Part shown: positions 31,524 through 40,576 of the stretch, one piece after another
Position numbering within the stretch: the stretch's first letter is position 1
How the letters are laid out: the number at the start of each line of letters is the position of its first letter
Assembly (NCBI GenBank): GCA_963739805.1
Contig: CAVUBJ010000005.1
Coordinates: 21,163-85,162 of the forward strand
Direction: 5' to 3'
Length of the DNA stretch: 64,000 nucleotides
From: an uncultured Trueperaceae bacterium
GTDB lineage: Bacteria; Deinococcota; Deinococci; Deinococcales; Trueperaceae
The notes under the pieces: model-generated
Database searches by the model: none
Told to the model about the DNA's origin: nothing
Seen by the model: only the letters and a program-made list of their open reading frames with translations
Translations under genes and position numbers: made by a program

Positions 31524-32477
31524 ATGACATTGTTGATCGTTGGCCTGGTCGTCGTCGTCGTCGGCCTGGCCGTGCTCGTTCAGGGGATCCAGGGGCAGCA
31601 GGGGAGCCTGCGCTCCCTCGGTGGTTTCGTCCTCGTGGCCGGGGTGCTGGTGGCGTTCGCGTCGCAGGCGTTCGTGGTGGTGCCGGCCGGCAACGTCGGG
31701 GTGGTGTTCAACACCTTCGGCGGCGTGCAGGATCGCGAGCTGGGGGAGGGGTTCCACGTCGTGCTCCCCTTCCTGCAGCAGGTCACGCTCTACGACGTCC
31801 GCCAGCAGGAGATCACGCTGGCGCGCGAGACCGGTGACCAGGTCACGGCGCGCTCCAGCGAGGGGCTGGAGATCACGGTCGACGTCACCATCCTCTACCA
31901 GGTCCGGCCGGAGGAGGCGGCCACCCTCCACCAGGACATCGGGCCGTCCTACGTCGAGGTGCGGCTCCGTCCGCAGGTCCGCAGCCAGGTGCGCGACGTC
32001 ATCTCCGGCTTCGCGGCGGCCGACCTCATCGCGACCCAGCGCGCCGAGGTGGCGGCGCAGATCGAGCAGCGGCTGTCGAGCGCGCTCACCAGCGACAACA
32101 TCAACGTCCTCACCGTGTTGCTGCGCGACGTCCGCATCCCCGAGGCGATCACCCAGGCGATCGAGGAGAAGCAGGCCGCCGAGCAGCAGGTACAGGTCGA
32201 GGAGAACCGCCGGCGTCAGGCCGAGATCGCCGCCCAGCGCAAGGTGATCGAGGCCGAGGGAGACCGCGACGCCGCCATCGCCCGCGCGGAGGGGGAATCG
32301 CAGGCGCTGAAGCTGCGCGGCGAGGCCCTGCGCGACAACCCCGCGGTCATCCAGCTCGAGGTGGCCCAGAAGCTCGCGCCCGGCGTGCAGACCGTGCTGC
32401 TGCCGAGCGACGGGAACTTCCTCATCGATATGCGCGGCTTCATGGGCGCTCCGGGCACGTCCGGCCCCACGCCCTGA
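31524..32477 (+). CDS. SPFH/Band 7 (prohibitin/HflC-like) membrane protein
   Basis: N-terminal TM helix, then SPFH domain (VVPAGNVGVVFNTFGGV...) and a C-terminal coiled coil. GGAGGT RBS. Confidence 0.85.
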   Translation: MTLLIVGLVVVVVGLAVLVQGIQGQQGSLRSLGGFVLVAGVLVAFASQAFVVVPAGNVGVVFNTFGGVQDRELGEGFHVVLPFLQQVTLYDVRQQEITLARETGDQVTARSSEGLEITVDVTILYQVRPEEAATLHQDIGPSYVEVRLRPQVRSQVRDVISGFAAADLIATQRAEVAAQIEQRLSSALTSDNINVLTVLLRDVRIPEAITQAIEEKQAAEQQVQVEENRRRQAEIAAQRKVIEAEGDRDAAIARAEGESQALKLRGEALRDNPAVIQLEVAQKLAPGVQTVLLPSDGNFLIDMRGFMGAPGTSGPTP

Positions 32478-32541
32478 GTGCGCCGCCCGTCCCCGGGTCG
32501 CGCGCCGGCGCGCGACCCGGGGACGGGCGGCCTCGCGGCTC

Positions 32542-33549
32542 TCACTCGAAACGCACGCCGCCGCCCGCCACCACCTCGCCGATCCGGTAGAGGGGCTCCC
32601 GCACCGCTCGGTGCGCGCGCTCCACGGCCCCGGGCGGGACCATCACCACGAAGCCGACGCCGAGGTTGAACACCCTGCGCATCTCCTCGGCCGCGATGCC
32701 GCCCGCCTCGGCCAGCAGGTCGAAGATGGGGGGCACCGGCCAGCTGCCGCCGTCCACCCGCACGCCCAGGCCCTCGGGCATCACGCGCGGGACGTTGCCC
32801 GGCAGGCCACCGCCCGTGACGTGCGCCATGCCGTGCACCACGCCCAGCTCCAGCAGCGCCCGCACGGGGTCCTGGAAGCTTCGGTGGGGCGCCAGGAGCG
32901 CCTCGCCGATGGTGGTGTCGCCGAACGGCTCGTGGTAGCGGCCGCCCAGGACCCGGCGCGCGAGGCTGAACCCGTTGGTCTGCAGCCCCCCCGAGGCGAG
33001 GGCCAGCACGGCGTCACCCTCGCGCACGGCGGAGCCGTCGATGATGTCCGCCTTGTCCACCAGCCCGACGACGCTCCCCACCACGTCGAGCTCGCCCGCC
33101 TGGTACACGCCGGGCATCTCGGCGGTCTCTCCGCCCAGTAGGGCCGTGCCGTTGGCGCGGCACGCCTCCGCGACGCCGGCGACCACCTCCGCGACGGCGC
33201 CTGGGTCGAGGCGGGCGCTGGCCACGTAGTCGAGGAAGAACAGCGGGCGGGCGCCCTGGACGAGGATGTCGTTGACGCAGTGGTTGACGAGATCGCGGCC
33301 GATGCCCTGCAGCCGACCCAGCGCCGTCGCCACCATGGTCTTGGTGCCGACGCCGTCGGTGGACGCCACCAGGACCGGCTCGCCCGGACCGCGCGGCAGC
33401 TCGAACAGGCCGCCGAAGGCACCCATGCCGCGCAGCACGCCCGGGGTGTAGGTGCTCGACACCAGCTCGCCGATGCGCCGCATGGTGTCGTCGGCGGCCC
33501 GCAGGTCGACACCCGCGCGCTCGTAGCCGTTGGAACGGTCGTCGCTCAT
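32542..33549 (-). CDS. purM: phosphoribosylformylglycinamidine cyclo-ligase (AIR synthetase)
   Basis: YERAGVDL, GGLFEL, VASTDGVGTK, LVNHCVNDILVQGARPLFFLDY. Confidence 0.95.
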   Translation of the reverse strand: MSDDRSNGYERAGVDLRAADDTMRRIGELVSSTYTPGVLRGMGAFGGLFELPRGPGEPVLVASTDGVGTKTMVATALGRLQGIGRDLVNHCVNDILVQGARPLFFLDYVASARLDPGAVAEVVAGVAEACRANGTALLGGETAEMPGVYQAGELDVVGSVVGLVDKADIIDGSAVREGDAVLALASGGLQTNGFSLARRVLGGRYHEPFGDTTIGEALLAPHRSFQDPVRALLELGVVHGMAHVTGGGLPGNVPRVMPEGLGVRVDGGSWPVPPIFDLLAEAGGIAAEEMRRVFNLGVGFVVMVPPGAVERAHRAVREPLYRIGEVVAGGGVRFE

Positions 33550-33613: not shown

Positions 33614-34411
33614 TCAGCCCGAGCCGCCGGCGCGCGTGCCGGCCGCCGCCGGAGCGCGACCCAGGGCGAGGGTCGCGTTCGCCACCAGGCCCGTGCCGGC
33701 GTCGAGCCGGGGCGCCGGCGCCCCGATACCGAAGCCCTGGACGTGACTGATGCCCAGCGTGGCGAGTGCGTCCAGGGCCACCGGATCCTCGATGCCCTCG
33801 GCGACGATCACGCCGAAGCGCTCCCGCGCGCGCTCGAGCAGCGCGAGGGCCGCGTCGTGTCGCTCCCTGCCGAGCAGCGCAGGGAGCAGATCGCGGTCGA
33901 GCTTCACGCCGTCGACGGGGGCTCCCGGGCGATACCGACTCGCCATGTCGTCGAAGGAAACGTCGTCCAGCACGATCATGCCGCACACCTCGCGGATCGC
34001 TTCGAGGGCGCGCCAGTAGCCACGGATGTCCGCGATGCGCTGCTCGGTGAGCTCGATCACCAGCCGCTCGCGCACCTGGGGCCGCAGGGCCGCGAGGGCC
34101 TGGACGGTGCCCGGGTGCACCAGCTGATCCGGACTGAGGTTGATGCTCAGGCGCGCGTTGGCGTGCCGCGACAGCGTCAGCGCGGCTTGCTGCACGGTGA
34201 AGGTGGTGAAGGCATGGCGCCTCGTGGGCCCCAACCAGTACGGCAGCACGGCCAGCGGGCCCAGGATGGTGCCGTCCGTAAGGTTCCAGCGCACCAACGC
34301 CTCGAACCACGTCCCCCCGGGCGCCGTCTCGTCGAGGGCCACGACGGGCTGGTATTGGAACCGCAGCTCCTGGAGCCGCGGCGCGCGCTTGTGGGGGGCA
34401 TCGATGGGCAT
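33614..34411 (-). CDS. stand-alone EAL domain protein (putative c-di-GMP phosphodiesterase)
   Basis: Sequence EALVRW (EAL), SINLSP (N), ELTE, LDDVSFDD, VKLD, AEGIED, HVQGFG. Catalytic residues appear intact. Start MPIDAPHKR. The 81-aa Pro-rich N-terminal extension of the track ORF was rejected. Confidence 0.75.
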   Translation of the reverse strand: MPIDAPHKRAPRLQELRFQYQPVVALDETAPGGTWFEALVRWNLTDGTILGPLAVLPYWLGPTRRHAFTTFTVQQAALTLSRHANARLSINLSPDQLVHPGTVQALAALRPQVRERLVIELTEQRIADIRGYWRALEAIREVCGMIVLDDVSFDDMASRYRPGAPVDGVKLDRDLLPALLGRERHDAALALLERARERFGVIVAEGIEDPVALDALATLGISHVQGFGIGAPAPRLDAGTGLVANATLALGRAPAAAGTRAGGSG

Positions 34412-34526
34412 GGGGACCGGGTGGAGGAGAGATCGAGAGTGATGCGCGGCCCCGACCGGTTGTGGCCGGGGCCCGCACGGTCCTAGGAGGGAGGCCGCGG
34501 CAACGCGGCGGAAGGATCGGTGCGGT

Positions 34527-34673
34527 TCAGCCGGGGTCGATGGTGTCGCCGGAGTGGGAGCCGCCGGCCAGGGCGGGTCCGGGCTGGGCGCTGAGGGCCA
34601 GCGGGGCGGCAACGGCACCGAACAGGGCGAGGGTGACGAGGGCGGTGCGGGCAATTCTCTTGAGCGTAGACAT
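34527..34673 (-). CDS. small secreted peptide precursor (48 aa; Sec signal peptide plus ~19-aa Gly/Pro-rich mature part)
   Basis: Not in the track (<60 aa). Sequence MSTLKRIARTALVTLALFGAVAAPLALSA|QPGPALAGGSHSGDTIDPG. A GAGGAGG RBS lies 6 nt upstream of the ATG. GC3-rich codons. It is immediately upstream of and co-directional with the EAL gene. Confidence 0.5.
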   Translation of the reverse strand: MSTLKRIARTALVTLALFGAVAAPLALSAQPGPALAGGSHSGDTIDPG

Positions 34674-34747
34674 GGTCAACCTCCTCGAGATGTCCGGAGC
34701 CTACCGGGGGGTATCTGCAATGGCTCTGTAACCGGTGGCGTCCGGCC

Positions 34748-34765
34748 GTTGCAGGCCGGTTGCAG
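34748..34765 (+). promoter_or_regulatory. two GTTGCAG heptamer direct repeats at 11-bp spacing, 11 nt upstream of a TAGGAT -10 box
   Basis: Sequence ccGTTGCAGgccgGTTGCAGcc in the divergent intergenic region; the architecture is typical of SARP/OmpR-type winged-helix binding sites. Confidence 0.45.
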
Positions 34766-34799
34766 CCCGCCTGCCCTAGGATTTGCCGGTAGGAGGACG

Positions 34800-34994
34800 A
34801 TGCCCATGACCAGACACGAAGCGCTCCGGCGCCTGGAGGGGACGTGGGCGTTCGAGGCGGTGCCGGGTGGCGTGCGCGTGGCAGACCCCGAACTGCTCGC
34901 GCTCATCGAGGACATCGAACGCGAACGTCACACTGCGACGCTGGTCGCGAGCCTCTCGGGCCGGCCCCTCGCGAGGGATCGCGCGAGCCCCTGA
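34800..34994 (+). CDS. small hypothetical protein (64 aa) upstream of the SARP-like regulator
   Basis: A GGAGGA RBS lies 4-5 nt upstream of the ATG. Sequence MPMTRHEALRRLEGTWAFEAVPGGVRVADPELLALIEDIERERHT... No family recognised. Confidence 0.45.
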   Translation: MPMTRHEALRRLEGTWAFEAVPGGVRVADPELLALIEDIERERHTATLVASLSGRPLARDRASP

Positions 34995-35078
34995 GCCCCA
35001 CCACCCACGGCCTGGCCGACGCCGGCGCCGAGCCGCTCGACGCCGGCGTTCAGGTGTGGCTCGTGGCGACGCCGGCAC

Positions 35079-37640
35079 GTGCCTTCGCGGCATCGGTCCG
35101 CCGCGCACCGCCTCGCCCGAGCGCCGTCGCCGGTATGCTGTGCCGTGTGGCTTGACCGGGTCGTCGACGCCGTCACCACGGACCCGGGGGCCGTGGCGCT
35201 GGTGGGCGGGGAGGCGTACGGAGCCCCCTTCGTCATCGATGCGTTGCGCCGGGGCCGCAGGGTCGCCTGGATGCACCTTCCCGAGCGCGTGCGCGACGAC
35301 CCGGTCGGTCAGGGAAACCTGCTCGCCGAGGCCGTCAACCGCGTCGCCACGGCGCCCCTGCTGAGTGAGGCGCTGCCCTACCGCTCCCATATCCAAACGC
35401 TGCGCCACTACCGGCACGAGCTCCAGCCCCTGTGGCTGGTGGTCTCCGGAGCGGCCCGCGCGCCGGCGCTGGCGCGTGACCTGCTCCCCCTGGCGGAGAT
35501 CGGCTACTCGGTGCTGCTCGACGTCGACGCGGACGACGGCCAGCTACCGCAGGCGCACGGCCGCCTCCGCGTGCTCGGCCCCGCGGTGCTGCGGCTGACC
35601 GCGGCGGAGGCCGGCGCCCTGGCGCCCGCCGGGCTCGACGCGGCGGCGCGCGACGCCCTCTACGCCGCCACCGGCGCGCGCTTCACCGACTTCGTGCGTG
35701 GCGCGCATCGTCGCCTGGGGCTCCCCGCCGTCTACCTGCCGTCGCCGGACGGCCCCCGCCTGGCGCGCGCCGATCAGGCCGTGGCCGACCCGCGATCCAC
35801 CGTCGAGGCGTTGCGGCGCCAGCAGCGCTGGGTCGAGGCGCTCGACCTGGCCGTGATGGAGGCGGCCGACCTCGTCGAGGGGCTGCTGCCGCGCGCCGGC
35901 CCGGCCCACCAGGAGGCGGGCATGCTGCCGCGGCTGCACCTACTGTTGAGCAGCCTGCCCGCCGCCTTCCTGTCGCAGGAGGCAACGCTGGAGTGGCGCC
36001 TGATGGCGGCCATCTCGGCCGACGACCTGGGGAGCGTCGCGCGCGACGTCGACGCCTACCTGGCGACCTATCGGGCGCCGGGCCTGCGGGCGCGCCGCGC
36101 CGGCACCCTCACGCAGCAGCAGGGCTTCCCGCTGGCGTGCGAGGCGGTCGAGGAGCAGCGCAGCCCGCTGACCCTATGGCAGTACGGGCGCCTGCATCCG
36201 GATCCCGATCGAGGCATCGCCCTGCTGCGCGAGAGCGTCGCGCTGGCCGAGGAGATGGGCTCGCGCTACGAGCTGGCCCGCAACGCCGGGGCGCTGGCCG
36301 CGCGGCTGCTGTACGTGGGCGATTTCAAGCAGGCCCGGGCCTGGGCGGAATGGGCGCTCCAGGTGTTCGACGCCGAGGGGCTGCGCGACGGTCGGCGGCG
36401 CCTCACCTTGTTCAACGATCTGGCCGCCAGCCGGATCCTCACGGGAGACCTCGCCGGTCTGCGCACGGCCCTCGAGGCCGCCGAGGCGTCGGTGGAGGGC
36501 GTCCTGCCGCCCATCGCCGGCTTCTTTCGCGCGACCCTGTCATGGCTCGAGCTCGTCAGCGGCCGGGCGGAGGCGGCCGAGCGCCTCGCGCGCTCGGCGT
36601 ACGAGGTGGCCCCGAGGGCGAGCAAGGCCTGGTTCGCCGTCGCCATGGTCCGTGCGCTGAACGAGCGCGGCCGTTCGGAGGAGGCGCTCCGGGTCGCGGA
36701 GGGCGCGGCCGCGCTCAGCGGCGAGGACCTGAGCTACCGCCGTCTGCCGGGCCTCCTCGCGCGCGGCATGGCGCGGGCGGTCGCCGGCCTCGATGGCGCC
36801 GAGGACGACCTGCTGGAGGTGATGACGGAACGCCGCGCGGCGGCGGCGGAGCAGCGCCTGGCGGCGGCGCTGCACTACCTGCTCGCCAGCGGCGGGGCCG
36901 CGCATCGCGTGCCGGAGGACCTGGCCGACATGATGGCCGACCTGCATCCGGCGGCCCTGAGGGTCCTGAGCGGCCCCGAGCGCGCATTCGCGGGGGTGTG
37001 GGCGACGCTCGGTGGAGCCCAGGCGCCCGTGCGCCTGCGCTTTCTCGGCGGTGCGCAGGCGTGGCTGCGTGGCGAGTCGGTGCCCCTGCCCCGTCGCCTG
37101 GCGGAGATCACGCTGGCCCTGGTACTCCACCCCGACGGCATCACGATGGAGGCGCTCCACGCCTTCCTGGTCGGTGACCTCGACGACGGACCCGTGGTGG
37201 CGACCCTCTACGCCCACATCAGGCGCCTGCGTGCCCTGCTACCGGTGAGCGGCCCACCGTATCGCTTGAGCGAGGCGTTCGACGCGGACCTGTTGCGCCT
37301 CTGGAGCCATCTCGAACGCAGCCAGGTGCGCGATGCCGTGGCGCTGTACCAGGGCGCGCTCCTGCCCGGCAGTGGCGCGCCCGGTGTACGCGAGCACGGG
37401 GCGCTGCTCGAGGAGCAACTGCGACAGGCCGCCATGGCGGCGGGCGACCCCGACGCGCTGTTCCAGCTCGCGGACGGCGCGGCCGACGACCTCGAGCTGT
37501 GGGAGGCCACCGAGGCCGCGCTGGCGCCCGGTGACCCGCGCCTGGCGCTGGCGCGAGCGCGCATCCGTCGGCTGGGCGAGGAGTACGGCGCCACGACCCC
37601 GGCCCGCGATAGTGGACCCGGCACGTGGTCTCCCCGGTAG
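35079..37640 (+). CDS. large transcriptional regulator with reversed SARP architecture: degenerate NTPase-like N-domain, helical-repeat middle, C-terminal OmpR-type winged helix plus BTAD
   Basis: C-terminus VRLRFLGGAQAWLRGESVPLPRRLAEITLALVLHPDG-ITMEALHAFLVGD...YAHIRRLRALL...PYRLSEAFDADLLRLW...ALYQGALLPG matches the SARP (AfsR/DnrI) DNA-binding plus BTAD pattern. The N-terminal VALVGGEAYGAP resembles a P-loop without the Lys. Start is uncertain (ATG 35079 or GTG 35145). Confidence 0.6.
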   Translation: MPSRHRSAAHRLARAPSPVCCAVWLDRVVDAVTTDPGAVALVGGEAYGAPFVIDALRRGRRVAWMHLPERVRDDPVGQGNLLAEAVNRVATAPLLSEALPYRSHIQTLRHYRHELQPLWLVVSGAARAPALARDLLPLAEIGYSVLLDVDADDGQLPQAHGRLRVLGPAVLRLTAAEAGALAPAGLDAAARDALYAATGARFTDFVRGAHRRLGLPAVYLPSPDGPRLARADQAVADPRSTVEALRRQQRWVEALDLAVMEAADLVEGLLPRAGPAHQEAGMLPRLHLLLSSLPAAFLSQEATLEWRLMAAISADDLGSVARDVDAYLATYRAPGLRARRAGTLTQQQGFPLACEAVEEQRSPLTLWQYGRLHPDPDRGIALLRESVALAEEMGSRYELARNAGALAARLLYVGDFKQARAWAEWALQVFDAEGLRDGRRRLTLFNDLAASRILTGDLAGLRTALEAAEASVEGVLPPIAGFFRATLSWLELVSGRAEAAERLARSAYEVAPRASKAWFAVAMVRALNERGRSEEALRVAEGAAALSGEDLSYRRLPGLLARGMARAVAGLDGAEDDLLEVMTERRAAAAEQRLAAALHYLLASGGAAHRVPEDLADMMADLHPAALRVLSGPERAFAGVWATLGGAQAPVRLRFLGGAQAWLRGESVPLPRRLAEITLALVLHPDGITMEALHAFLVGDLDDGPVVATLYAHIRRLRALLPVSGPPYRLSEAFDADLLRLWSHLERSQVRDAVALYQGALLPGSGAPGVREHGALLEEQLRQAAMAAGDPDALFQLADGAADDLELWEATEAALAPGDPRLALARARIRRLGEEYGATTPARDSGPGTWSPR

Positions 37641-37723: not shown

Positions 37724-39979
37724 GTGCCCGTCGCGCTCGAGGTGCTCGTTCCCCTCCCGATCGAACCGCTGAGCTACCTGCCGCCGCTCGATCGTCCGCG
37801 GGGTCCGGTCGGCGCCCGGGTGGTGGTGCCTTGGCAGGGCGGCGTCCGCGTCGGCCTGGTGGTCGGCACGCGAGATGTTCCGGCGGGGCGTGGCCTCGAG
37901 CTGAAGGAGGCCGTCGACTGGCTCGATGCCGTTCCCTTCCTGACCCCCGACGCGGTCGCGGCCCTCAGGGGCATCGCGCGCCAGGCGGCCGCCCCGGCCG
38001 GCGTCGTTCTGGCGGGATTCGTGCCCGCCGGCTTCCAGCTGGAACTCCGCCACGAGATCCGTGCGCTGGACGCGGCCGGCGCGCTGGCGGCCGGCATCGC
38101 CGCCGACGCCTGGGTCGATGCGTCCGAGGTGGCCCTCGAGCGGCTCGAATGGCTGCGCACTCAGGGGTTGATCCACGAGCGCGTGGTGCGGCCGGTGCGC
38201 ACCGTCCGCGTGTTGGTGCCGCTGGCCCACGCCGACGGAGCGCTCGCGGGAGCGCGGCGGGCCAACCAACGCGATGCCCTGGAGCTGTTGTGGCGTGACG
38301 AGCGGGCCGACAGCGCGGCCGCGCTGTCGCGCGATGCCGACGTGCCCGACAGCGCCGTGCGGGCGCTGGTCGCCAAGGGCTACGCCGGCTACGCCGAGGT
38401 CGAGGCCCCGCCGCCGCCACTGCCGCGGCTGGCGGTGGCCGCGGAGCCCCCGCCCGCCGGCCTCCCGGCCGAGCCGCCCCCGGAGGGATCGGGCGCCGTG
38501 GTGGGGGGGTTGCGCCGCGATCGGCTGCGGAGCCTGCGCCCCCGCCTCGAGGCGGACCTGGAGGCCGGCCACGGCGTGCTCGTGCTGGTCCCCGAGCAGG
38601 GGTTGTTGGAGGAGACCTGCGCGGCCCTGGCGGGTCTGCCCCTCCAGCTGCTCTCGGGCGACAGCACCGACGAGCAGCGCGTGCGCCTGTACGAGGAGTT
38701 GCGCGATGGCGGGCCCGTGATCCTGGTGGGTTCCTACCTGGCGCTGCTGGCCCCGGTCCCGGCGCTGGGGCGCGTGGTGGTGCTGGAGGCAGGGAGCGGC
38801 AGCTACAAGCTCCTATCCGGAAGCCGTGCCTTCGTGCCCAACGCCGCCGCTATCCGAGCTCAGACGGCCGGCGCGGCGCTGACCCTGGCCGACGTCGTCG
38901 CGGGCCCCGAGCTGCTCGCGCGCGTGCCCGCGGACAGCCGCCTGTCGCTGCCCCTGCCGCGTCTGCGGCTCCACGTGGCCGACATGAACGGCAGCGCCAA
39001 TTGGCCGCTGCACCCGGACCTGGTGCGGGTGCTGCGGCAGGTGGAGGAGCGCGGGCGCCAGGCCGTGGTGCTCGCCCCGCGCCGCGGCTTCTCGGCGGCG
39101 CTGGGATGCCTCGACTGCGGCTGGCTGGCGCAGTGCCCCAACTGCGACCTGACGCTGCGCTACCACCAACAGGACGGCCGGTTGCGCTGCCACCAGTGCG
39201 GCTACGAGCAGGTCCCGCCCCAGGCCTGCCCGGCCTGCGGCGGGACCGACGTGGCCCCGTTGCGCGGCGCGGGCACGCAGTGGGTGGCGTCGCAGCTCGC
39301 GGGCATGGTGCCCGCGTTGCCGGTGCTGCGCGTCGACCGCGACCGCCGCGACGATCTGTCGGCGCTGATGGACGGCGCACCGGGGGTGGTCGTCGGGACC
39401 ACCGCCGCGTTGCGCCTGCCGCCGCTGCCGAACGTGTCGCTGCTCGCGCTCACCCTGTTCGACACCCACCTCGGCCTGGCGGACTTCCGTGCCGAGGAGG
39501 AGGCCCTGCGGTTGCTGCTCCAGCTCGCCGAGCTCGCGCCCGAGCGGCGGCCGCTCGTGGTGGTGCAGACCTACCAGGCGAGGCACAGCGTGCTGGAGGC
39601 GTTGCGTTCCGCCGACCCCGAGGTGGCCGTGGAGCTGTTGATCGGTCGCTGGTTGGAGCGCCGCCGCCGCTTCGCCTACCCGCCGTTCGCCGCGCTCGCC
39701 AAGCTCCAGCTCACCGCCAAGGATCGGGCCACCGCCTCGGCGGCCGCGGACGCCCTCGCAGGCGAGCTCCGGCGCCGCGGCGCGGCCGCGGAGGACGTGC
39801 TGGGGCCGGCGCCCGCACCGGTGGCGCGGGTGCGCGGCCGCTACGCCTATCAGGTGTTGCTGCGCGCCGAGGCCCTGGACGCCCTCGAGGAGCAGCTCGG
39901 TGGGCTCCCCACGCGCCTCGGCGGCGCGCGCCTGCGCGTCGACGTCGACCCGCGCGACGTGGGCGAGTTGCTGGAGTGA
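37724..39979 (+). CDS. priA: primosomal protein N' (PriA) lacking Walker A/B helicase motifs
   Basis: N-terminal 3' DNA-binding domain. Cys-rich zinc region CLDCGWLAQCPNCDLTLRYH...CHQCGYEQ...CPACGG. C-terminal domain ARVRGRYAYQVLLRAE. Where E. coli has GVTGSGKT and DEEH, this protein has RRDRLRSLRP and LEAG. GTG start 5 nt after a TGTAGACT extended -10. Confidence 0.85.
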   Translation: MPVALEVLVPLPIEPLSYLPPLDRPRGPVGARVVVPWQGGVRVGLVVGTRDVPAGRGLELKEAVDWLDAVPFLTPDAVAALRGIARQAAAPAGVVLAGFVPAGFQLELRHEIRALDAAGALAAGIAADAWVDASEVALERLEWLRTQGLIHERVVRPVRTVRVLVPLAHADGALAGARRANQRDALELLWRDERADSAAALSRDADVPDSAVRALVAKGYAGYAEVEAPPPPLPRLAVAAEPPPAGLPAEPPPEGSGAVVGGLRRDRLRSLRPRLEADLEAGHGVLVLVPEQGLLEETCAALAGLPLQLLSGDSTDEQRVRLYEELRDGGPVILVGSYLALLAPVPALGRVVVLEAGSGSYKLLSGSRAFVPNAAAIRAQTAGAALTLADVVAGPELLARVPADSRLSLPLPRLRLHVADMNGSANWPLHPDLVRVLRQVEERGRQAVVLAPRRGFSAALGCLDCGWLAQCPNCDLTLRYHQQDGRLRCHQCGYEQVPPQACPACGGTDVAPLRGAGTQWVASQLAGMVPALPVLRVDRDRRDDLSALMDGAPGVVVGTTAALRLPPLPNVSLLALTLFDTHLGLADFRAEEEALRLLLQLAELAPERRPLVVVQTYQARHSVLEALRSADPEVAVELLIGRWLERRRRFAYPPFAALAKLQLTAKDRATASAAADALAGELRRRGAAAEDVLGPAPAPVARVRGRYAYQVLLRAEALDALEEQLGGLPTRLGGARLRVDVDPRDVGELLE

Positions 39980-40126
39980 GGGGGCGCTCGCGCGCTCGAT
40001 CGCGCACGCCCGCCACGTGAGCGAGGGGGCCGCGGGGCATGCCGACGGAGGCGCCCCGCCGGGCCCGCGGCCGGCCGGCGGTTTTGCCTTTCTCACGGCC
40101 CGTGGCTATCATGGTGCGCGGACCCC

Positions 40127-40576
40127 ATGGCGACTCTCAGGAATCGACGCGCAACTTTCGACTACGAACTGCTCGAACGCTTCGAGGCGGGCCTCCAGCT
40201 CCGGGGCAGCGAGGTGAAGTCGCTGCGGCAGGGGGGCGGCTCGTTGGCCGAGGCGTACGCCCGCGTCGAGGGCGGTGAGGTGTACCTCGAGGGGATGACC
40301 ATCCCCGCCTACACCGAGGCGAGCTACAACAATCACGAGCCCCTGCGCCGCCGCAAGCTGCTCCTCAACCGCCGCGAGATCGAGACCATCCAACGCGGCC
40401 TCGAGCGCAAGGGGCTGACGCTGGTGCCGCTGGCGCTGTACTTCAAGGGGGGCTGGGCCAAGGTGGAGATCGCCCTCGCGCGCGGCAAGAAGCTGCACGA
40501 CAAGCGCCGGGACGAGGCCAAGAAGGACGCCCGGCGCGAGATCGAACGCGCGCTCTCCCGGCGCGGCGACGCGTGA
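40127..40576 (+). CDS. smpB: SsrA-binding protein
   Basis: NRRATFDYELLERFEAG...GSEVKSLR...KLLLNRREI. A TTGCCT-N17-TATCAT promoter lies 14 nt upstream of the ATG; no SD. Confidence 0.95.
   Translation: MATLRNRRATFDYELLERFEAGLQLRGSEVKSLRQGGGSLAEAYARVEGGEVYLEGMTIPAYTEASYNNHEPLRRRKLLLNRREIETIQRGLERKGLTLVPLALYFKGGWAKVEIALARGKKLHDKRRDEAKKDARREIERALSRRGDA

Follow-up and report, generated by a model that had tools for sequence, protein, structure and literature searches.

Peptide signalling through TPR receptors, as found in the RRNPP systems (Rap/Phr, NprR/NprX, PlcR/PapR, Rgg/SHP, and AimR/AimP), is regarded as a speciality of Firmicutes and their phages, and SARP activators, such as AfsR of Streptomyces, are seen as peculiar to actinomycetes, where they go with antibiotic clusters. 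Here we describe a locus that joins both ideas in a third phylum, the Deinococcota. It lies in a 64,000-nucleotide stretch of contig CAVUBJ010000005.1 from an uncultured Trueperaceae bacterium (hereafter, the window) and consists of four genes: a pre-peptide gene followed by a gene for an EAL-type phosphodiesterase of cyclic di-GMP (c-di-GMP) on one strand and, diverging from them, a gene for a 62-residue protein (orf62) followed by a regulator gene. We consider it probable that these genes form a conserved regulatory cassette in which a SARP-like activator controls two promoters set back to back, one driving the peptide and phosphodiesterase genes and the other orf62. The cassette is compact (four genes and about 130 bp of control DNA) and conserved in at least 30 genomes, and it is set apart by a reversed SARP domain order, the apparent loss of the ATP switch, and the breakdown of c-di-GMP as the proposed output.

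The regulator is predicted to share its building blocks with AfsR and EmbR, the parts in question being an OmpR-type winged helix-turn-helix (wHTH) joined to a BTAD domain, a STAND-type NOD, and a TPR sensor. The likeness extends to the predicted binding of tandem direct repeats with an 11-bp period over the -35 position and to the presence, beside the regulator, of a candidate target gene whose product has about 60 residues, orf62 (62 residues) and afsS (63 residues) being likened by length and position. However, the predicted domain order is NOD-TPR-SARP in the cassette and SARP-NOD-TPR in AfsR, the Walker A lysine is missing, so that no ATP switch is expected, and the regulator falls below threshold for Pfam Trans_reg_C and BTAD. 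Of the features that define the SARP class, the wHTH-BTAD fold of EmbR and AfsR is predicted to be present, whereas the SARP domain is not N-terminal and PF00486 is not matched. Whereas AfsR belongs to actinomycetes and antibiotic clusters, the cassette belongs to Deinococcota, where the regulator is accompanied by a predicted secreted peptide and c-di-GMP phosphodiesterases.

The MalT and LAL activators of the STAND class have the same succession of NOD, superhelical TPR-like sensor, and C-terminal DNA-binding domain; in the cassette, by contrast, the DNA-binding domain is predicted to be of the SARP type rather than the LuxR type, and the P-loop is degenerate, with neither GxxxxGK[ST] nor Walker B. 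With the RRNPP receptors, the regulator appears to share a TPR domain of the Rap/NprR/PlcR/AimR type and a genetic setting in which a cytoplasmic TPR receptor lies near a small open reading frame (ORF), here divergent, for a predicted exported pro-peptide whose conserved part is C-terminal and whose gene the receptor probably activates. The differences are that the regulator has a C-terminal SARP-like module in place of an N-terminal XRE-type HTH or Rap three-helix bundle, that it carries an additional NOD-like domain, that some precursors contain tandem multicopy cores, that the host belongs to the Deinococcota, and that the output gene encodes a c-di-GMP phosphodiesterase. Features of two known kinds, the AfsR/MalT-type STAND activators and the RRNPP-like peptide cassettes, come together here in a phylum from which neither is known to have been described, and our literature searches (YTH3, Truepera and c-di-GMP, RRNPP and Deinococcus, and peptide pheromones with TPR and c-di-GMP) found no account of such a system.

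A syntenic four-gene cassette

We sampled the neighbourhood in 40 loci, with one genome per species, all from Trueperaceae-like metagenome-assembled genomes. In tblastn searches, the EAL gene lies divergently upstream of the regulator gene in about 32 of the 35 loci with enough flanking sequence, and all four cassette genes are syntenic in about 32 of these 35, which bears out the neighbourhood conservation that the initial annotation of this DNA had put forward as a check. At nearly every locus, the EAL gene is immediately preceded by a signal-peptide ORF and the regulator gene by an orf62 homolog, both lying in a gap of 600 to 830 bp. Family hidden Markov models (HMMs) match orf62 in 37 of the 40 loci, always beside the regulator, and the peptide in 31.

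In the window, where the G+C content of the region is about 74%, the pre-peptide gene (34527-34673, minus strand; 48 residues from its ATG) is separated by 115 nt from the EAL gene (33614-34411, minus strand; 265 residues from the likely start ATG 34411, within a long ORF at 33614-34654), and orf62 (34806-34994, plus strand) is separated by 150 nt from the regulator gene (35145-37640, plus strand; 831 residues from a GTG start). The initial annotation, which had delimited a signalling module at 34462-37640, described these genes correctly and left out most of the EAL gene; its 125-bp intergenic region is indeed a divergent spacer, the length of which varies from 120 to 132 bp with the start codons chosen. 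Two of its gene products need shortening. For orf62, given as 64 residues (start at 34800), the family alignment and public gene calls favour the 62-residue form beginning MTRHEAL. For the regulator, given as 853 residues from the longest ORF (35079-37640), the family alignment begins M/V-W-L, which corresponds to GTG 35145, 22 codons inside that ORF; this start is backed by the homolog alignment, by the disorder of residues 1 to 20 in the predicted structure, and by the public gene call of an identical locus (831 residues).

Divergent control region

The divergent spacer contains two inverted pairs of heptamers, each a direct repeat with an 11-bp period. Read towards the peptide gene, the left pair is GTTACAG-agcc-ATTGCAG (34715-34732, minus strand), and the right pair is GTTGCAG-gccg-GTTGCAG (34748-34765, plus strand). 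The right pair is exact and unique in the 64-kb window; the left pair differs from it by two mismatches, and the rest of the window contains nothing comparable. A putative -10 box lies outward of each pair, TAGGCT for the leftward (peptide-EAL) promoter (34698-34703, minus strand; a TAnnnT sequence 11 nt from the proximal heptamer) and TAGGAT for the rightward (orf62) promoter (34777-34782, plus strand; 11 nt 3' of the proximal heptamer), so that the whole operator (34698-34782) reads AGCCTA-11-CTGCAAT ggct CTGTAAC-15-GTTGCAG gccg GTTGCAG-11-TAGGAT.

This layout, a heptamer pair (11 bp), a gap of either 15 to 19 or 27 to 28 nt, and an inverted heptamer pair (11 bp), is kept in all 24 loci examined, whose divergent spacers measure 130 to 180 bp; one helical turn separates the two gap classes. 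An outward TAnnnT stands 9 to 11 nt from the proximal heptamer on the leftward side in 22 of the 24 loci and on the rightward side in 24 of 24. The heptamer is CGCTTCA/TGAAGCG in most loci, and within each locus the exact pair is confined to the divergent spacer. SARP boxes are described as direct repeats 11 or 22 bp apart, the 3' repeat of which lies about 8 bp from the -10 box (PMC10936776), and the predicted sites agree with this geometry on both sides. A scan for consensus sigma-70 promoters and terminators found none, and there is no -35 box, as expected of activator-dependent or leaderless promoters. Transcription is predicted to start near 34691 (minus strand) and 34789 (plus strand) from the two divergent promoters and at 35145 (plus strand) from the leaderless promoter of the regulator gene. 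We also considered an RNA stem formed by the inverted heptamers and rejected it: the 4-nt spacers are non-complementary between the two sides while the heptamers are conserved, and we therefore regard the repeats as protein sites.

The heptamer appears to change in step with the predicted recognition helix of the regulator, which reads VVATLYAHIRRLRALL in the window. The main clade combines a helix of the form G-[MLV]-R-x-x-x-T-R-L-R with CGCTTCA, the window and locus L001 combine T-L-Y-A-H-I-[RK]-R-L-R with TTGCAG or TTTCAG, and a distant clade of three loci (L030 to L032) combines A-L-R-S-A-V-S-R-L-R with GTTGCAA. We take this correspondence between clades as supportive and not conclusive. 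The operator of locus L029 was not parsed with confidence.

The regulator: a predicted MalT-like layout with a SARP-like module

A -10 box, TATGCT (35134-35139, plus strand), lies 5 nt before the GTG of the regulator gene. In nearly all loci a TAnnnT sequence occurs 5 to 7 nt 5' of a regulator start that reads [AG]TGTGG, and no Shine-Dalgarno sequence precedes it. Leaderless mRNAs are common in Deinococcus (PMC4007540). Since the TAnnnT box and the missing Shine-Dalgarno sequence are a leaderless signature, the regulator is probably expressed on its own from a leaderless-type promoter, and orf62 would be the activator-dependent gene. Of the operon of orf62 and regulator that the initial annotation proposed, the gene order thus stands, and the regulator probably has a separate promoter.

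The AlphaFold2 model of the regulator, built from 40 sequences, has a predicted local distance difference test score (pLDDT) of 90.1 and a predicted TM score (pTM) of 0.88, and disorder is limited to residues 1 to 20 and the last 13. It predicts an N-terminal NOD-like pseudo-NTPase domain (35145-35825, plus strand), a superhelical TPR sensor domain (35826-37013, plus strand), an OmpR-type winged-helix DNA-binding domain (37020-37286, plus strand), and a BTAD-like helical domain (37287-37586, plus strand). The SARP-like module corresponds to residues 648 to 836 in the 853-residue numbering, behind the NOD and the TPR domains. The top PDB match of the whole protein in Foldseek is a STAND plus TPR protein (6mfv; E value of 1.8e-6 over 662 columns), and the AfsR SARP chains match its last ~230 residues (TM score of 0.54 to 0.58, 20 to 22% identity). 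Structural comparison of the model scored the N-terminal domain at 13.8 against the NOD of MalT and the C-terminal module at 14.2 against EmbR and at 12.7 to 12.9 against the AfsR SARP (24% identity). The TPR sensor scored 23.7 against domain III of MalT, 21.6 against a phage Rap bound to peptide, 17.5 against RapI, 17.0 against NprR-NprX, 16.9 against AimR, and 14.4 against PlcR-PapR. We conclude from the model that the regulator has a MalT-like layout with a dead P-loop and with a SARP module in the place of the LuxR domain or, put another way, that it resembles an AfsR with its domain order reversed.

The sequence itself is less telling as to the C terminus. Pfam and NCBIfam searches of the regulator returned weak TPR matches only, with no Trans_reg_C, BTAD, or ATPase even at an E value of ≤1, and Pfam gave no GerE/LuxR match in the regulator or its homologs. 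Sub-threshold matches to Trans_reg_C and BTAD occur at the expected positions in some homologs; those to Trans_reg_C (PF00486) number 11 in 40 homologs, with a best E value of 0.0036, below the gathering score. Because the full family profile matched only OmpR-family proteins weakly among PDB sequences (PhoB, ToxR, and CadC, E values of 0.2 to 1) and the C-terminal profile matched none, membership of the SARPs is not demonstrable at the sequence level. The C-terminal SARP/BTAD domain named by the initial annotation therefore agrees with the predicted fold, with its EmbR and AfsR matches, and not with the Pfam HMMs, a missing hit to which the annotation had itself listed as telling against the assignment. 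Its other two domain calls hold well: the degenerate NTPase-like domain is predicted to have a STAND/MalT-like fold with Walker A reduced to GxxxxG[AVT]P, and the helical-repeat region is modelled as a TPR sensor whose nearest likenesses are MalT domain III and the RRNPP receptors. At the P-loop position, all members of the family have G-x4-G-[A/V/T]-P (GGEAYGAP in the window), lacking both the Walker A lysine and the Ser/Thr, and the family alignment contains no acidic Walker B motif after the third strand.

Database searches retrieved 111 full-length relatives of the regulator, with a best identity of 55%; all are labelled hypothetical, and the named ones are Trueperaceae or Deinococcales. 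Most members of the family carry the precomputed Pfam label PF27103 (YTH3_C), the origin of whose name we did not find. Since a profile of the C-terminal region finds 1,360 clusters at 50% identity in a representative library (229 of them at an E value of ≤1e-30), the 40 genome loci greatly understate the size of the family. The best 150 of these 1,360 clusters all have the same ~820-residue architecture, with no bridge to canonical SARPs, and look-ups of clusters from this search gave just hypothetical and Trueperaceae labels.

The pre-peptide and the phosphodiesterase

The peptide ORF extends over 34527-34679 from a TTG; from the ATG at 34673, preceded at 6 nt by GAGGAGG, it encodes the 48-residue product MSTLKRIARTALVTLALFGAVAAPLALSAQPGPALAGGSHSGDTIDPG, in which an n-h-c layout like that of a signal peptide is followed by a hydrophilic, acidic core ending in DPG at the stop codon. 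Every member of the family has a basic N terminus, a hydrophobic stretch of 15 to 20 residues (often with an A-x-A-like end), and a hydrophilic, acidic tail. The tail follows the consensus [LIV]-A-[DG]-[ST]-S-G-Q-x-G-E-[WY]-D-[AVP]-G and then the stop codon (...ALAGGSHSGDTIDPG in the window), and the D and the last G (D-x-G) are invariant across the family. Over six close locus pairs, the ratio of nonsynonymous to synonymous substitutions (pN/pS) is 0 to 0.37, and the peptide ORFs of L005 and L024 differ by five synonymous and no nonsynonymous changes; as judged from these substitutions, the peptide is under purifying selection. The pre-peptide ORF with a signal-peptide layout, one of the first features noted at this locus, is thus present, conserved in at least 31 loci, and apparently selected.

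At least four precursors contain two to four tandem copies of the core. That of L025 (L025:2325-2579) has four back-to-back copies of QTSNQPGEYDVG, that of L039 (L039:5276-5599) has four copies of ADTSGQPNEYDVG with 7-residue spacers between them, and those of L023 (L023:5349-5636) and L033 (L033:5325-5534) have three and two copies, respectively. Such repetition is as expected of a precursor that would be cut to release a peptide of about 12 residues. Because purifying selection, the conserved D-x-G core, and the tandem cores coincide, we suggest that the functional product is a released peptide. The core length in the multicopy precursors is about 12 to 13 residues, and the spacers are short in some of them and absent from others. 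Masked runs of N occur at the precursor in L019 and L034, which we place with the multicopy loci.

The peptide family forms about 40 clusters in database searches, all of them unnamed and none with a Pfam domain, and neither small ORF has a Pfam or NCBIfam family, a point that could suggest spurious ORFs in a genome with 74% G+C, where long chance ORFs are plentiful in the window, beside an EAL gene and a regulator that are real but unrelated neighbours; we find this reading scarcely credible given that public gene callers report both ORFs on public contigs, that both families are conserved at the same position in 31 to 37 loci, that the peptide shows an excess of synonymous substitutions, and that both have Shine-Dalgarno sequences and activator-type promoters.

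The EAL protein matches Pfam EAL with an E value of 2.2e-28 and has no second domain. In an alignment of 31 orthologs the catalytic residues (the E and L of the EAL motif, R, N, E-x-x-E, DD, K, E, and Q) are invariant, in line with its initial description as a stand-alone EAL protein with intact catalytic residues, and we expect the protein to be active as a c-di-GMP phosphodiesterase. The interval that separates the peptide stop from the EAL start contains a GC-rich stem-loop without a U tract (34443-34477, minus strand) and a smaller hairpin (34494-34509, minus strand), and the RNA of 34405-34535 (minus strand) has a predicted folding energy of -52.8 kcal/mol (z of -2.4). Nearly all loci have a comparable strong hairpin at this site, its presence being kept while its sequence differs. 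It is possibly an attenuator that favours peptide over EAL transcripts; alternatively, it may serve as a 3'-end stabiliser.

orf62

The start of orf62 is preceded by AGGAGG (34791-34796). Its family comprises about 40 clusters in database searches, likewise unnamed and without any Pfam domain. The AlphaFold2 model (pLDDT of 72) consists of a helix, a beta-hairpin, and a long helix and has no significant structural neighbour in the PDB (best E value of 3.6). We take orf62 to encode a small cytoplasmic protein, which could be a downstream effector, as AfsS is for AfsR, or a modulator of the regulator. At one locus, L038, a Peptidase_S58 gene (L038:4876-5931, minus strand; DmpA-type aminopeptidase, E value of 3e-108) stands between orf62 and the regulator gene; this may be a coincidence, or the product may be a processing enzyme. 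An Rfam scan of the intergenic regions returned only a sub-threshold match to chrB-a, at 34913-34996 (minus strand) over the 3' end of orf62, which we take as chance (23 bits against a gathering score of 44, E value of 0.29).

A distant clade with another phosphodiesterase

The regulators of L030 to L032 are 37 to 41% identical to that of the window, and no EAL, peptide, or orf62 gene lies upstream of them. Instead, the orf62 HMM finds a homolog downstream of the regulator and convergent with it, preceded by an operator of the same kind, which in L030 reads AGTTTA-10-GTTGCAA acac GTTGCAA followed by a second pair and TATACT. Divergent from orf62 is a signal-peptide ORF of 38 to 43 residues with an I/F-D-x-G motif (for example, FA|EIGDGGHIDFG..., FA|EVGDGDIDPG..., and FA|RPRTFDPG...), followed by an HD-GYP gene (Pfam HD_5, E values of 5e-30 and 2e-27) in which the HD...GYP motifs are present. 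These cassettes span L030:8576-10045, L031:8576-10081, and L032:8516-9837. Because the cassette persists with a non-homologous phosphodiesterase, HD-GYP in place of EAL, we suggest that c-di-GMP hydrolysis is its conserved output and that both orf62 and the peptide are genuine components of it.

A diguanylate cyclase gene or a GGDEF-like match is found near two regulators. In L032, a membrane GGDEF diguanylate cyclase (L032:4660-5736, plus strand; E value of 1e-47) is encoded directly upstream of the regulator on the same strand, and L015 has a GGDEF-like match about 2.3 kb upstream.

Proposed mechanism and alternatives

Our working hypothesis is that of a self-contained, positively regulated signalling cassette. 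The regulator would be made constitutively from its own leaderless promoter, and its NOD would be nucleotide independent. Once its TPR sensor is occupied, it would bind both heptamer pairs as side-by-side protomers, the repeats occupying the -35 position of the two back-to-back promoters, and would switch on the pre-peptide and EAL transcript as well as orf62. Sec would export the pre-peptide, and cleavage by signal peptidase with further trimming would leave an acidic peptide of about 12 residues, approximately GGSHSGDTIDPG; we propose GGSHSGDTIDPG and QPGPALAGGSHSGDTIDPG as candidate forms of the ligand. After re-uptake, this peptide would be the most likely ligand of the TPR sensor, which would result in autoinduction similar to that of the RRNPP or Rgg/SHP systems, and the coexpressed phosphodiesterase would lower c-di-GMP as the physiological output. 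What the analysis itself establishes is the gene content with its conservation and synteny, the predicted folds, the intact EAL active site, and the operator repeats with their geometry. We infer binding and activation at the repeats as well as export and processing of the peptide, and the action of the peptide as the ligand of the regulator is the weakest step.

The full chain, with the processed peptide as the ligand of the TPR sensor, is in our judgment a tentative proposal, a shade below an even chance. The peptide/c-di-GMP signalling module envisaged by the initial annotation has gained strong comparative support from synteny, multicopy cores, the shared operator, and the HD-GYP swap, while its peptide-sensing part remains conjectural. 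Several points weigh against our interpretation. The link from the peptide to the TPR sensor is drawn from gene association and fold resemblance, and resemblance among TPR folds is generic. The cassette encodes neither an oligopeptide importer nor a protease of its own, and the outer membrane of Deinococcota is an obstacle to the free diffusion of a peptide of ~1.2 kDa. The peptide-ligand model leaves no part for orf62, the gene most tightly tied to the regulator. The D-x-G motif of the distant clade does not stand at the C terminus. As regards the activator, the regulator of the window has no Pfam Trans_reg_C or BTAD match, and the covariation of operator and recognition helix comes down to about three clade-level events.

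The same wiring could also operate with the peptide as an output: it might act extracellularly, for instance upon the envelope or matrix, upon other cells, or by binding metal, and the regulator would respond to a different ligand, whether c-di-GMP or some related nucleotide bound in the degenerate NOD pocket, a metabolite lodged in the TPR groove, or orf62 itself. This reading is a serious one that we nonetheless place on the less probable side. It fits with a c-di-GMP link that is kept twice over, through EAL or HD-GYP, with the GGDEF gene just upstream of the regulator in L032, with the tighter association of orf62 than of the peptide with the regulator, and with the missing importer. However, an activator beside the gene of a small, secreted, multicopy peptide that it activates is the classic layout of an autoinducer; the peptide is short, hydrophilic, and acidic, with no recognisable effector domain; and the NOD lacks the Walker A lysine, nothing in the present analysis pointing to nucleotide binding.

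Far less probable, in our view, is a locus for a ribosomally synthesized and post-translationally modified peptide (RiPP) or a bacteriocin-like product, in which a SARP-type pathway-specific activator would drive a repeated-core precursor, as SARPs do in actinomycete antibiotic clusters. Multicore precursors are typical of some RiPP classes, and SARPs are classically cluster-situated activators (PMC10936776), but the conserved neighbours of the peptide gene are only the phosphodiesterase and orf62 and include no gene for peptide modification, dedicated transport, or immunity. Moreover, the N terminus is a Sec-type signal peptide rather than a RiPP leader, and the core is acidic and not antimicrobial-like.

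Should autoinduction through the TPR sensor apply, Deinococcota would have its first peptide autoinducer system, a kind of which very few examples exist beyond Gram-positives, with a Sec-exported precursor (carrying up to four tandem signal copies in some lineages), a new receptor class that joins a nucleotide-independent STAND/TPR part to a C-terminal SARP module, and signalling coupled directly to c-di-GMP hydrolysis by interchangeable EAL and HD-GYP enzymes; we regard this as possible and, taken as a whole, rather doubtful. The natural variants make these hypotheses testable, since there are three operator/recognition-helix classes, single and multicopy peptides, and EAL and HD-GYP versions, and the analysis gives a probable role to three "hypothetical" families and to the Pfam domain PF27103.

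Genomic surroundings

The PADLOC models of anti-phage defence have no match in the cassette. In the window, purM lies past the EAL gene, and priA and smpB lie past the regulator gene. The flanks (31524-33549 and 37724-40576) are of a housekeeping nature, comprising a band-7/SPFH-like protein, purM, priA, and smpB. These flanking genes are not kept beside the cassette in other genomes, and in the tblastn survey purM and priA are never its conserved neighbours.

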